Shown one piece after another: positions 26,767 through 43,735 of a stretch of DNA of 64,000 nucleotides; position 1 is the first letter of the stretch; every line of letters starts with the position of its first letter. The stretch covers positions 13,516,001 through 13,580,000 of the forward strand of contig OX597833.1 in the NCBI GenBank assembly GCA_951406725.2, written 5' to 3'. The notes beneath the pieces are model-generated. The model saw nothing but the letters and a program-made list of their open reading frames with translations. It was not told the DNA's origin and made no database searches. The position numbers were made by a program, and so were the translations under genes. The stretch comes from Octopus vulgaris (lineage: Eukaryota).

Positions 26767-27041
26767 TGTTTTTCATTTATTTCATATATATATATATATA
26801 TATATATATATATATATATATATATATATATATAATAAATATTAGGGAATAAATCCAAATTTACAGGGAAAAATCAGATTTAGGATTGAATCCAATTTTA
26901 TAGTAAAATATAATATAATATTAATTAGAGACAAAACCACTATTATGCAAATCAAACAAAGAAAGACTTAATCCAATACATAAAATTTTTTATATAAATT
27001 AAATATAATTAAGATTCTGTGTTTTTTTTTCTCTCTGTGTA

Positions 27042-27079
27042 TCTTTCTGTTGAAGAGCGTAGGCTCGAAACGTTAAAGA
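27042..27079 (+). ncRNA. Minimal hammerhead candidate (family H1) in a TA-anchored element 27016-27178
   Basis: TCTTT-CTGTTGA-A-GAGC(GTAG)GCTC-GAA-ACGT-T|AAAGA; A6 is mutated. Confidence 0.55.
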
Positions 27080-27223
27080 CTTGTTTTATTTATATTTCCT
27101 GAGCGCCATACTAATACAATTGTTTGTTTGTTTTCCACCTGCCTTCGTCTTTTGTCTATTTTCATAAAGCTTCCCCCTATATATATATATATATATATAT
27201 ATATATGTATATATATATATATA

Positions 27224-27613
27224 TCTTTATATATAAAAGTTGTGTGTTTGTCTCCTACGATTTAGATTCCTAACTACTCCCACATTTTGCGGTGCAGTTT
27301 AACCAAAAGTGGGTATCTTATAGTCGTGATTCATATCGAGCCCTTCTGGGTATTAGCGCGCGTCTACGATGAGTCTACGATTAAAAAAAAAATTTACCAT
27401 TCTTTTCCATTTTAATGCATTTTTTTCGCTATTAAATAAGGGAAGTAACTCTAAAAATGTCTACGATGAGTCAACGATTTAAAAAAAAATTTACCATAAT
27501 TTTTTCCCCATTTTTAATGCATTTTTTTTGCTATTTTTAGGCTATAACTCTCTAAAAATGCTTATATAGTTATTTCCCGTACAAACCCGAGCAACGCCGG
27601 GCAATACTGCTAG
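27224..27613 (+). mobile_element. Non-autonomous Helitron F
   Basis: A|TC 5' end, subterminal hairpin, CTAG|T 3' end, inside (TA)n. Confidence 0.92.
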
Positions 27614-27629
27614 TATATATATATATATA

Positions 27630-27821
27630 TGATGAACCAAGGAGGAGACAGGAAGAGAGGAGAAAGTCTCATTAATGCCAGTCCTGAGTCTAAAATACTT
27701 CGGTATTCACATATGACATACGCTGGCCTAAACTGACCTAAACTGACCCGATCCGGCCTTACCTCATTTGACGTGAAATGTTCCACACCAACGTATTTCC
27801 TAAAATTTAGGAGGATGTTAT
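27630..27821. repeat. Left arm of a ~190-bp inverted duplication (partner 30259-30451)
   Basis: Reverse-complement match with only a handful of differences. Confidence 0.93.
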
Positions 27822-27893
27822 ATGTGACCGCGTGTGTACCGTTGGCGATTTTTTTCCTCTGTCTTCCCTTCTCTGGATCTTTCTTTCTCCTAT

Positions 27894-27928
27894 GTTTCCG
27901 ACGAAGAGCTCCGCTCGAAACGTTAAAC
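27894..27928 (+). ncRNA. Minimal hammerhead candidate (family H2) in element 27828-28020
   Basis: GTTT-CCGACGA-A-GAGC(TCC)GCTC-GAA-ACGT-T|AAAC. Confidence 0.6.
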
Positions 27929-28023
27929 CCTCCTTTTTTCCTGAGCGTCCAATAATATTATATTTGTTCCACGTCCTCGCGTTGTTGTGTTTTTTTGTGT
28001 TTTCTTGTTTGGATTAACTTATA

Positions 28024-28630
28024 TCTTTATATATAAAAGAGAGGTTGTGTGCTGTCTGTCTCCTACGATTTAGATTCCTAACTACTCCCACATTTTGCGG
28101 TGCAGTTTAACCAAAACCGGGTATCTTATAGTCGTGATTCATATCGAGCCGTTCTGGGTATTAGCGCGCATCTACGATGAGTCTACGATTTAAAAAAAAA
28201 TTTACCATCATTTTTTTCCATTTTAATGCATTTTTTTCGCTATTAAATAAGGGAAGTAACTCTCTAAAATGTCTACGATGAGTCAACGATTTAAAAATAA
28301 ATTTACCATAATTTTTTTCCATTCTAATGCATTTTTTTCGCTAATTAAATAAGGGAAGTAACTCTCTAAAATGTCTACGATGAGTCAACGATTTAAAAAT
28401 AAATTTACCATCATTTTTTTCCATTTTAATGCATTTTTTCGCTATTAAATAAGGGAAGTAACTCTCTAAAAAATGTCTACGATGAGTCAACGATTTAAAA
28501 AAAATTTACCATCATTTTTTTCCCATTTTTAATGCATTTTTTTTTTGCTATTTTTTTGCTATAACTCTCTAAAAATGCTTAGATAGTTATTTCCCGTACA
28601 AACCCGAGCAACGCCGGGCGATACTGCTAG
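28024..28630 (+). mobile_element. Non-autonomous Helitron F with four internal ~100-bp tandem units
   Basis: TC...hairpin-CTAG; GTCTACGATGAGTC unit at ~28171, 28272, 28374 and 28476. Confidence 0.92.
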
Positions 28631-40277: not shown

Positions 40278-40958
40278 TATTTCTTTACTACCCACAAGGG
40301 GCTAAACACAGAGAGGACAAACAAGGACAGACAAAGGGATTAAGTCGATTATATCGACCCCCAGTGCGTAACTGGTACTTATTTAATCGACCCCGAAAGG
40401 ATGAAAGGCAAAGTCGACCTCGGCGGAATTTGAACTCAGAACGTAACGGCAGACGAAATACCTGTTTCTTTACTACCCACAAGGGGCTAAACACAGAGAT
40501 GACAAACAAGGACAGACAAACGGATTAAGTCGATTATATCGACCCCAGTGCGTAACTGGTACTTAATTTATTAAGTACCAGTTGCGCACTGGGTCGATTT
40601 GCCTTTCATCCTTTCGGGGTCAATAAATTAAGTACTTATTTCTTTATTACCCACAAGGGGCTAAACACAGAGAAGACAAACAAGGACAGACAAAGGGATT
40701 AAGTCGATTATATCGACTCCAGTGCGTAACTGGTACTTAAATTATTAAGTACCAGTTGCGCACTGGGGTCGATATAATCGACTTAATCTCTGTGTTTAGC
40801 CCCTTGTGGGTAATAAAGAAATAGGTACTTAATTTATTGACCCCGAAAGGGTGAAAGGCAAATCGACCTTGGCGGAATTTGATCTCAGAACGTAGCGGCA
40901 GACGAAATACCGCTAAGTATTTCGCCCGGCGTGCTAACGATTCTGCCAGCTCGCCGCC
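40278..40958 (-). mobile_element. SINE A nest with internal inversions
   Basis: Minus-strand units interleaved with plus-strand fragments at ~40571-40636 and ~40745-40823. Confidence 0.88.
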
Positions 40959-41527
40959 TTAAGCAGGTTGAATGATACACGCAGAGTATGTGGGCGGACG
41001 GCAGCATGCAATTGGTCAGGTGAATGGACGGATTGCAGACGGAGGAGCTGCACTGACATCGTCACCCCAATCGTGTTCATCCAACGTTTGTTTCTGTTCA
41101 TCGCCCCCTCTTTTTTTCTGTTGGTATATGGCTCAAATCCATATATGTGCTGTAATTCTAGTTGACGGCCAGCCACTTCTGGGGAAGTCCGGGATGTTTT
41201 GTTCAAATTCCATCGTTCCGATCTTTTTAAGGAATTTGTGACCAAGTGCTTAAGTTTTAACAAAATACTGTTTCCTCTTTCTTTTCTTCCCTTTTCCTTC
41301 TTTCTCTTTGTCGCTCTTTTTTCCTTCTCGCTCTGCGACCCTTGAAGCATTTTCCCACCACAACTCCTCTCTCTTCTCTCTCTCTTTCTCCCTCTTTCTC
41401 TCTCTCTCTCGCTTTCTCTCTTTCTGTCTTTCCGTCATTCCTCAAAAATGCTACAAGGAATGTGTCTCCAGAACAACCGCTCCTGCATGACTTGTCCATC
41501 TGTCGTCACTCCGTGTGTGTGTGGTGT

Positions 41528-41735
41528 TATTGTGTGTGTATGTGTGTGATTGTGTGTGTGTATGTGTGTGATTGTGTGTATGTGTGTGTGTGTGTGATTG
41601 TATGTGTGTGATTGTCTGTGTGTGATTGTCTGTGTATGTGTGTGATTGTCTGTGTATGTGTGTGATTGTCTGTGTATGTGTGTGATTGTCTGTGTATGTG
41701 TGTGATTGTCTGTGTATGTGTGATTGTGTGTGTGT
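41528..41735. repeat. 20-bp minisatellite TGTGATTGTCTGTGTATGTG
   Basis: Direct reading. Confidence 0.9.
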
Positions 41736-42504
41736 GTTTGCCTGCGTGAATGTTTTCCAAGGTGTCTTCCTTTTGTTGTGTGTGTGTGTGTGTTTGTGTG
41801 TGTGTGTGTGTGATTGTGTGTTTGTGTGTGTGTGTCACTGACTTTGCGTAAACTGTCTTCTTTTTCCTCTTCTCCGCCGTATGACTGTATGTATGTAAGT
41901 GTGTGTGTGTGTGAGAGAGAGAGAGCTGTTTTCTTTGTGTGTGTGTGTGTGTGTGTGTCACTGTCTTTTCTTCTGTCATTAGGAGAACGGATATTATGAC
42001 CGCAAGGTGCATCCGTATTTAGGCGAGAGAGAGAGAGAAACAGAGAGAAGTGTGCGTGGGAGCGATAGAAAGACAGAGAGAAAGAGAGGGGGGGAGGTGA
42101 GTCCGTTTTCCTCAAATGTCCGTCTTGACACCTCTTAGTTCGGAGCAAGTAGTCTGCAGTTAAATACTTTTTATTCGGTAATTATTCAAGTAGACAAATT
42201 TTAGTCTTTTCTCTTGGCTTCTGTCATCAGCCGCTCAGATGTCTCCCGGTGTAAAGGGTGTGAGACTTTAAACTTTAGAGTAGGCACTCAAACGTTGAGT
42301 AGAACTTCAAGTATTGAGTGTCAGATGTTGACTGCAAATTGTCTGACGACATGACAACGACATTAAACAACATCTACAATCCACAGTGAAAAGCTTCAAA
42401 ATCTCTCTCTCTCTCTCTCTCATCTCTCTTCTTTTTCTCTTTTTTCCCTTTCTCTTTTTCTATCTTTTTACCTTTTCTTTCTCTTTCTGTCTCTCTTTTG
42501 GTTC

Positions 42505-42782
42505 TCTTTTCTTCTTCTTCTTCTTCTTCTTCTTCTTCTTCTTCTTCTTCTTCTTCTTCTTCTTCTTCTTCTCTTCCTCTCTTCTTCTTTCCTCCTTCTT
42601 CTACTTCTTTTCTTCTATTCTTTTATTCTTCTTCTTTTCTTCTTCTATTCTTCTTCTATTCTTTTCTTCTTCTATTCTTCTTCTTCTTCTTCTTCTTCTT
42701 CTTCTTCTTCTTCTTCTTCTTCTTCTTCTCTTCTATTCTTCTTATTTTCTTCTTCATCATCTTCTTCTTCATCATCTTCTTA
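42505..42782. repeat. (CTT)n microsatellite
   Basis: Direct reading. Confidence 0.95.
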
Positions 42783-43388
42783 CTATATATATATAACTGG
42801 GGCATTTTTGTACGATATCTTATTTTTAGCCAAACTCCGCCAACACACACACACACACACACACACACACACACACACACACACACACACACACACACAC
42901 ACACACACACACACACACACACACTGACACACTCACACGCCGGATGCCCTGTGTTGCTATCCTCTTTATTTTTATTTTTAACTTCCAGCTTTTCCTGAAC
43001 GGTTACTGTTAACTTTCGTCATCAGTTGAATATCACTGACACACATACATCTTCGTACTCATTTATCACACATCTATATCTATCTATCTATATCTATCTA
43101 TCTATCTATCTATCTATCTATCTATCTATCTATCTATCTATCTATCTATCTATCTATCTATCTATCTATCTATCTATATATATATATATATATATATATA
43201 TACACACACGCGCATGTACACATACACACACAATCACACATACACACACACACACACACACACATATATATATAATATATATATATATATATAGGGAGAA
43301 TTCACGAAAAAAAAAAGCAAAAGACGAAGACAGGTGGTGTAGACAACAAACAGATGTATTAGTATAACGCTCAGGAATTCAAAAAGTA

Positions 43389-43423
43389 TTTTACGTTTCG
43401 AGCCTACGCTCTTCTTCAGAAAG
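43389..43423 (-). ncRNA. Family H1 minimal hammerhead with an intact core, in element 43293-43450
   Basis: Minus strand: TTT-CTGAAGA-A-GAGC(GTAG)GCTC-GAA-ACGT-A|AAA. Confidence 0.65.
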
Positions 43424-43629
43424 GGACACAGAAAGAAACAAGGAGAGAAGAAATATATATATATATGCACACATATACATGCAATTATATATATATATAT
43501 ATATATATATATATATATATATATATATATATATATATAGTTAATCCAAACATGAAAGCACAAAAAAACACAACAACGCGAGGACGTGGAACAAATATAG
43601 TATTATTGGACGCTCAGGAAAGAAGGAGG

Positions 43630-43664
43630 GTTTAACGTTTCGAGCGGAGCTCTTCATCGGAAAC
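43630..43664 (-). ncRNA. Family H2 minimal hammerhead in element 43540-43732
   Basis: Minus strand: GTTT-CCGATGA-A-GAGC(TCC)GCTC-GAA-ACGT-T|AAAC. Confidence 0.6.
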
Positions 43665-43735
43665 ATAGGAGAAGGAAAGATCCAGAAAAGGGAAGACAGA
43701 GGGAAAAAAATCGCCAACGGTACACACGCGTACAC

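Follow-up and report, generated by a model that had tools for sequence, protein, structure and literature searches.

Minimal hammerhead ribozymes (min-HHRs) occur in the pseudo-long terminal repeats (pLTRs) of metazoan Penelope-like elements (PLEs), a subject that Lunse et al. have reportedly treated as well. In the consensus of Cervera & De la Pena (2014, PMC4209133), metazoan PLE min-HHRs read U-rich / stem I / CUGANGAH / G..C / GAAAN-palindrome-NU-H. Most are solo copies, probably from truncated PLEs, and the min-HHR monomer does not cleave while dimers cleave weakly (PMC4209133). Here, we characterize a dispersed repeat, termed H, with six hammerhead-like motifs in a 64,000-nucleotide (nt) stretch of the Octopus vulgaris genome (GenBank assembly GCA_951406725.2, contig OX597833.1, forward-strand positions 13,516,001 to 13,580,000), referred to as the window. 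The window is non-coding, microsatellite-rich animal DNA. Based on the evidence below, the H1 and H2 subfamilies form one repeat that is likely, with a probability of about 0.72, the 5'-truncated pLTR end of a (TA)n-targeting PLE, and its minimal type I hammerhead would probably show no more than weak cleavage, restricted to dimers or to conditions in which a protein assists.

Three further systems are useful for comparison. In the Poseidon element PAc of Anolis carolinensis, reverse transcription starts 111-118 nt into the open reading frame (ORF) and the ribozyme cut lies at +26 (Frangieh et al. 2024, PMC11167929). PAc copies are templated mainly by uncleaved RNA, the ribozyme requires protein, and ribozyme mutants leave in vitro insertion unaffected (PMC11167929). 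Naiad PLEs are described as biased towards (TA)n and Neptune PLEs as biased towards microsatellites (Craig et al. 2021, PMC8557442); Naiads, which have an N-terminal endonuclease, spread without canonical hammerheads, and the Neptune clade carries a C-terminal GIY-YIG domain with a CX2-5CxxC linker (PMC8557442). Non-LTR retrozymes, finally, are 150-450 bp head-to-tail tandem arrays with canonical hammerheads (PMC7229834, PMC6765202). For O. vulgaris itself, 31 recently active PLE families are listed in a study of its repeats whose available portion makes no mention of ribozymes (PMC13282606).

Anatomy of the H motifs

The pattern GAAGAGC-N3/4-GCTCGAAAC matched the window six times (27052+, 27903+, 33082+, 33439-, 43414- and 43655-) and was never found in 100 dinucleotide shuffles of it. 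A profile search returned exactly the same six copies with E-values of at most 2e-34, the next match having E=0.97, and no H copy without the ribozyme part was found by BLAST within the window. The six hammerhead-like motifs proposed in an initial sequence-only reading of this DNA were thus recovered where they had been placed, and the window holds no further family member. We parsed all copies as type I hammerheads and name them by the position of C3: 27047+, 33077+, 33444- and 43419- (H1) and 27898+ and 43660- (H2). The homology of the two subfamilies extends over the entire element (57-64% identity). Within H2, both copies are 96% identical to each other, and 33077 is a divergent H1 copy sharing 65-72% identity with the others.

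The core reads CUGUUGA in 27047 and 33077, CUGUGGA in 33444, CUGAAGA in 43419, CCGACGA in 27898 and CCGAUGA in 43660. All six therefore fit the previously proposed pattern CYGWNGA, with 43419 as the only exact CUGANGA core and a single substitution in the remaining five (A6U three times, U4C twice). C3, G5, G8, A9, G12 to A14, the complete stem II and the C3-G8 pair are invariant. As had been noticed before, stem II is fixed (GAGC/GCUC in 6/6) while its loop varies, being GUAG in H1 and UCC in H2, and an extra A follows A9 in every copy. The G10.1-C11.1 pair, a paired stem II, GAAA and the additional nucleotide between 9 and 10.1 are each present in 6/6. A shifted core register using GAAGA as G5 to A9 was ruled out, as positions 3-4 and stem II would then be unconserved.

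Stem III is a loop-less palindrome followed by H17. The ACGU reported earlier applies to five copies, with H17 being U at 27074, 27924, 33417 and 43634 (copies 27047, 27898, 33444 and 43660) and A at 43392 (copy 43419), but not to 33077, where ACAU is followed by A at 33104. Contiguous stem I pairs number 5 in 27047, 4 in 27898 (GUUU/AAAC), 33444 and 43660, and 3 in 33077 and the canonical-core copy 43419. Consequently, a canonical core, an intact palindrome and a 4-bp stem I are combined in none of the six. The proposed covariation of stem I between subfamilies could not be confirmed. It comes down to one pair (C-G twice, G-C twice and a mismatch in 33077 and 43419), both G-C cases stem from the near-identical H2 copies, and the covariation score was equalled by 203 of 500 shuffles. 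The hammerhead register itself is confirmed by slid controls, which pair at 21-41% compared with 90% in the true register.

Compared with the published class, H shows the type I topology, the absence of a stem III loop, the ACGU palindrome, the extra nucleotide 9/10.1 and G10.1-C11.1, together with a 3-5 bp stem I, a U-rich 5' flank and mostly solo copies. Its 4-bp GAGC/GCUC is almost that of an Acropora Neptune min-HHR with stem II GGGC/GCUC (PMC4209133). The main differences are the A6U or U4C changes in 5/6 copies, since the available rows of Fig. S3 of that paper show CUGANGA or UUGANAA, and a conserved downstream block in H that is able to pair back. The Fig. S3 set came mainly from a core-based descriptor, and its molluscs are Lottia and Crassostrea with no cephalopod among the rows available (PMC4209133). 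H is a probable cephalopod addition to a known and widespread class.

Within H, 20 of 27 motif columns are invariant compared with 38 of 105 in the flanks (Fisher p=4e-4; nearly the same with four lineages). This excess suggests that the motif was under selection while carried by the source elements. U6 is found in three of four H1 copies, which are 65-80% identical to one another, and C4 in both H2 copies, while the canonical copy 43419 has a U6 copy as its close sister (89.5% identity). The most parsimonious reading is that U6 would have been inherited from source elements rather than gained by decay, and both A6U and U4C look inherited.

Calling all six copies ribozymes, as initially done, captured the minimal hammerhead anatomy correctly and overstated the label, given that 5/6 carry A6U or U4C. 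With five altered cores, most copies would likely cleave poorly or not at all, and the activity of the present copies is likely low. Natural A6C and U4C hammerhead variants have low activity (Perreault et al., PMC3088659); our literature search found no hammerhead paper on A6U itself. If U6 and C4 held genome-wide, the family consensus would lack the CUGANGA core for catalysis, with a PLE origin still standing.

Element ends, origin and competing explanations

The next (TA)3 begins 91-103 nt past H17 in 6/6 copies, in line with the element end previously placed about 90-100 nt downstream at or near a (TA)n tract; the 88-106 nt range used to judge this was picked post hoc, and 2.6% of background positions have a (TA)3 within it. 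For 27898, this (TA)3 lies inside an adjoining Helitron-like element, and TATA directly follows the copy itself. The 5' ends vary from about 20 to about 70 nt upstream of C3, or possibly 270 nt for a copy starting at 27625. A fixed 3' end combined with variable 5' truncation is what would be expected of endonuclease-bearing (EN+) Penelope-like elements. TA tracts flank three of six copies on both sides (those bounded at 33003 and 43452, and the one at 27625 if the extension belongs to it), an arrangement more in keeping with insertion into pre-existing (TA)n than with a templated tail. Each of the six copies retains the whole ribozyme and none has its start where the cut would fall, so that cleavage of the templates at this site is unlikely. 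The copies form three pairs within 900 nt, with P=3e-4 under a uniform null and 8e-3 for random insertion at TA tracts.

This geometry resembles that of PAc. By subtraction, cut and reverse transcription start are 85-92 nt apart in PAc, compared with 91-103 nt between H17 and the 3' end in H (PMC11167929). In both elements the ribozyme precedes the genomic 3' end by about 90 nt, targets are rich in AT and copies retain the whole ribozyme, and the PAc end geometry and uncleaved template match the end position and ribozyme retention of H. In contrast, the PAc ORF begins within stem II, where translated frames of H contain no ATG-led ORF, and H ends at pure (TA)n with no tail variant seen. With Naiad and Neptune elements H shares (TA)n or microsatellite targeting and heavy 5' truncation, and Octopus Naiads are listed with a (TA)n preference (PMC8557442). 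However, H carries the full min-HHR layout and Naiads lack a canonical hammerhead; five H-specific strings were absent from the available Naiad supplement of PMC8557442, in which line breaks could mask a match. By these features, H would not fall within the Naiads. Among the named PLE clades, Neptune would be the likelier candidate.

We propose that a parent element with reverse transcriptase (RT) and a GIY-YIG endonuclease would nick (TA)n DNA, and that reverse transcription, by analogy with PAc, would begin internally at a set position, some 90-100 nt 3' of the cut, and usually stop early. Such a process would leave the observed common 3' ends at TA tracts and variable 5' ends, with complete ribozymes copied from templates that were likely uncleaved. 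In a tandem transcript of the parent, two ACGU palindromes could pair to give a double hammerhead. The solo copies, with A6U or U4C in five of them, are predicted to be mostly inactive passengers.

A number of results weigh against this interpretation. The 411 stop-free frames of at least 45 amino acids (aa) in the window contain no RT or GIY-YIG remnant in Pfam; nothing exceeded the cut-off, and seven sub-cut-off matches in five frames were to other domains. Protein searches with three frames (element plus upstream extension) and one Atlas query found no parent protein (0 of 9 candidates in one search, three weak matches at 37-40% identity in another, no candidate in a third and a best score of 0.77 in a fourth). 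Partial tandems, inverted copies next to an element and 30-40 nt tails, which are frequent in EN+ PLEs without being obligatory, were seen for none of the six H copies. SINE-like and Helitron-like repeats in the window adjoin TA tracts too, and TA adjacency is thus not PLE-specific. The folding stability of monomers does not exceed that of shuffled sequences (z -0.9 to +0.9). For five copies, nearest-neighbour energies place the double-hammerhead fold at -7 to -15 kcal/mol and the best dimer folds at -19 to -28 kcal/mol, a penalty of 11-17 kcal/mol in a comparison made without a validated ribozyme as control; these energies only say that dimers would not form readily unaided. Local Rfam scans of three H copies gave no hammerhead match, and a scan of the whole window gave none among the 150 of 231 matches listed, these being mostly microsatellite-driven miRNA matches without any at gathering score. 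Natural heterodimers were also considered for the two same-strand pairs, where stem I pairs across copies over 3/5 bp (43660-43419) and 3/3 bp (27047-27898), and were found unsupported, as no double-hammerhead fold resulted for the 300-nt transcript.

The Penelope-type min-HHR anatomy suggested at the outset is therefore supported, while descent from the pLTRs of TA-targeting PLEs is plausible and unproven: with no parent found, the origin is deduced from anatomy. Extension in the 5' direction, expected to lead to a parental PLE ORF, reached no such ORF within the window and only a putative extension at 27625-27828. EN+ PLEs carry a telomerase-like RT and a GIY-YIG endonuclease in a single ORF, which short truncated copies are expected to lack. 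One frame upstream of H2 ends in '...YAGLN', resembling the GLN end of PLE endonucleases; the usual spacing is missing and we treated it as chance. Positions 27625-27821 are 97.5% identical to 30456-30259(-), the link of 27625-27828 to H2 being an inferred one, as no second copy spans the gap at 27822-27828. The end of the 30259-30515(-) copy carries TCACATTAACA, a short inverted echo of the bases leading into H2 at 27822, which is weak evidence for a common, longer parent of both segments. H had no match in two scans of prokaryotic genome contigs, and strings of H and of a common 185-bp repeat of the window were found in no paper. A search of the octopus and cephalopod hammerhead literature, with Repbase, Dfam and most subscription papers beyond its reach, produced no description of the family.

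Different explanations for the same data have to be considered. It is possible, though we rate it clearly below even odds, that the parental motif is no longer a working ribozyme, with A6U fixed in H1 and U4C in H2 and the fold kept as a signal for protein recognition or folding. This would be compatible with a PLE origin. It is favoured by the distribution of U6 and C4 described above, by the intact in vitro insertion of PAc ribozyme mutants (PMC11167929) and by the spread of Naiads without canonical hammerheads (PMC8557442). Against it stand the invariance of the catalytic G5, G8 and G12 and of the C3-G8 pair, the low activity still shown by natural A6C and U4C variants (PMC3088659), and the small sample of six copies, in which the two H2 copies are nearly one observation. 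More doubtful is the idea that H is a short non-autonomous element, SINE- or retrozyme-like, with its own small master, PLE enzymes supplied in trans and (TA)n possibly as its tail. All copies measure 150-400 nt and none reaches an ORF, and retrozymes have been proposed as non-autonomous PLE derivatives (bioRxiv 10.64898/2026.07.22.740005); like H, retrozymes include short metazoan repeats with a type I hammerhead, some of which need dimers (PMC7229834). On the other hand, the 5' ends of H differ between copies, there is no tRNA-like head (0 tRNA genes found) and no head-to-tail tandem array exists at any H copy. H is solo, 5'-ragged and minimal, with a 3-5 bp stem I and a loop-less stem III, whereas retrozymes have canonical hammerheads with a 6-bp stem I and a looped stem III. 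An accidental hammerhead likeness within an ordinary dispersed repeat would be in keeping with the single exact core, the missing Rfam match for three copies and the lack of excess folding stability. We consider it highly improbable, however: the two halves of the core, the additional nucleotide, G10.1-C11.1, the palindrome and stem I all follow one another in hammerhead order and register, pairing is far lower in slid controls, and the motif is where conservation is highest.

The class itself, its additional A, its palindrome and its dependence on dimers have been published before; the points that stand out in H are core variants that look inherited and the fold-back block. Two subfamilies of about 60% identity keep the motif yet differ at core positions 4 and 6. 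Given poor cleavage and seeming dispensability for insertion, H may serve as a test bed for what PLE hammerheads do: across a genome with many copies, there would be enough covariation to distinguish a catalytic role from one in protein recognition, and to examine the block. Such elements would escape descriptor-based counts if A6U and U4C were the family majority.

A conserved block downstream of the motif

Missing from the initial anatomy was a conserved downstream block possibly pairing back onto the ribozyme. The block, UUCC-GA--G-H, is the most conserved 10-column stretch downstream (7/10 invariant) and ends in GCGU-H. It might act as a built-in partner, forming with ACGU(U) a real stem III with a 19-27 nt loop and allowing a monomer cut at a distal GUC or GUU 25-33 nt further on. 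Alternatively, pairing with GCUC-GAA or with ACGU might lock the ribozyme, so that the template stays uncleaved. An ACGUU/AGCGU helix is predicted by RNAalifold with 90% of cells paired, and the lock helix with GCUC-GAA has 87% of cells paired and a probability of 0.7-0.85 in H2. In 33077, both arms are changed and still pair (G-C to A-U; U.G to U-A), with AAUGU-C downstream (C at 33135) matching ACAU, which explains the 'broken' palindrome of this copy; 5 of 7 changed pairs are kept (P=0.02-0.11). When sites are scored by their stem III plus stem I pairs, none surpasses the distal register in any of the four H1 copies (1 of 72-84), and in H2 it comes fifth of 75-76. Distal stem I alone ranks 1-6 of 72-84 in H1.

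These observations are offset by several others. The block was found post hoc, the whole-core duplex test was not significant (81-108 of 1000 column shuffles) and only chosen sub-regions reached 2-57 of 1000, with column shuffling inflating the significance of the pairing. Covariation was equalled in 68 of 500 cases for the ACGUU helix and was absent for the lock helix, and the double change in 33077 consists of two CpG-type transitions. Beside the core, distal stem I amounts to just 1-3 pairs in H1; in H2 it is mismatched at 1.1 and takes rank 50-51 of 75-76. The distal fold lies 7-13 kcal/mol above the free ensemble. The distal triplet is GUC in three copies and GUU in two; in 27047 it is GCC, which is not NUH and thus unusable. 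The block may also be a relic duplication of CUGA..GAGC. Overall, we regard a functional role for the block as unlikely. Still more speculative, and in our estimation a long shot, would be a 'one-and-a-half' hammerhead in an abundant octopus Penelope family. A conserved downstream copy of the substrate strand would fold back intramolecularly and provide stem III, and the RNA could adopt any of three forms, namely locked, cut at ACGU-H as a dimer, or cut 25-33 nt downstream as a monomer; fixed A6U and U4C would hide the subfamilies from descriptor and Rfam searches.

Individual copies and neighbouring repeats

On the forward strand, H1 copy 27047 spans 27025-27177, has GCC as its block triplet (third base 27107) and ends at (TA)14 (27178-27205). 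The probable 5' extension of the first H2 copy, 27625-27828(+), begins directly after (TA)8 and leads into 27829-28019(+), the element containing C3 27898; its downstream triplet is GUC with C at 27949, followed by TATA and a Helitron-like element. The ribozyme-less fragment of the same putative H2 parent is located at 30259-30515(-), its 5' boundary being approximate. The divergent H1 copy 33077 covers 33003-33201(+) between TA tracts. H1 copy 33444 occupies 33326-33510(-), with a 3' end at (TA)13, an uncertain 5' boundary and a downstream GUU (third base 33391). H1 copy 43419 extends over 43294-43452(-), with TA tracts on both sides and a downstream GUU (third base 43366). H2 copy 43660 lies at 43540-43730(-), 241 nt upstream of 43419 on the same strand, and has a downstream GUC (C at 43609) and an end at (TA)27.

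A second hammerhead-like family, probably the one that the initial reading counted as its first, is present in the window, with first core bases at 26658+, 25667-, 26201+, 62157+ and 61976- (five BLAST copies, three descriptor matches). It has a CUGAAGA-type core, an AU-rich stem II region of about 68 nt, a palindromic stem III, ACAUAUGU or ACAUAUAUGU, and a 4-bp stem I, GCGG/CCGC. Its copies lie near TA tracts and include a head-to-head inverted pair at 62059(-)/62062(+). A PLE origin of H is helped by this family, as its head-to-head inverted pair is a PLE-type arrangement. A single element at 20990-21218(-) shows AAACGU-A-GAG directly after a TA tract, like the 3' half of a minimal hammerhead, and runs for about 200 nt to another AT-rich tract; it is possibly a third PLE end truncated inside the ribozyme. 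Between (TA)25 and H1 copy 27047, an AT-rich 180-nt segment (26843-27024(-)) without another copy in the window may be the 3' end of a further TA-targeting element, head-to-head with H1.

A non-autonomous element with Helitron-like features is inserted in TA tracts at 27220-27613+, 28020-28631+, 32443-32840- and 11621-12031+. It has a 5' TC, a 3' hairpin with CTAG and internal 102-bp repeats, and three of its four copies are at or within about 250 nt of H copies. A repeat of about 185 bp, presumably an octopus SINE, is very common in dispersed, tandem and inverted form (12560-13793, 24359-25033, 45072-45535, 56014-56558 and others), and an inverted pair near 47103-47376 causes a spurious MIR2646 match in Rfam. 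A degenerate interstitial (TTAGGG)n-like array of about 65 units is found at 44278-44734, 550 nt from H2 copy 43660.

A frameshifted transposase-like fragment, presumably of Tc1/mariner type, lies at 51183-51400(-). Its search gave 4 matches of 12 candidates, and for 51183-51368(-) the best and only named match was LOC128250757 of Octopus bimaculoides (E=5e-26, with 77% identity across 98% of 62 aa). Together with the 185-bp repeat, this one repeat-derived fragment points to a probable octopus host. The fragment is adjoined by a 181-bp tandem repeat at 50679-51216 (3 copies, 94% matches), and a 57-bp tandem repeat with 6.7 copies (95%) is located at 17110-17494.

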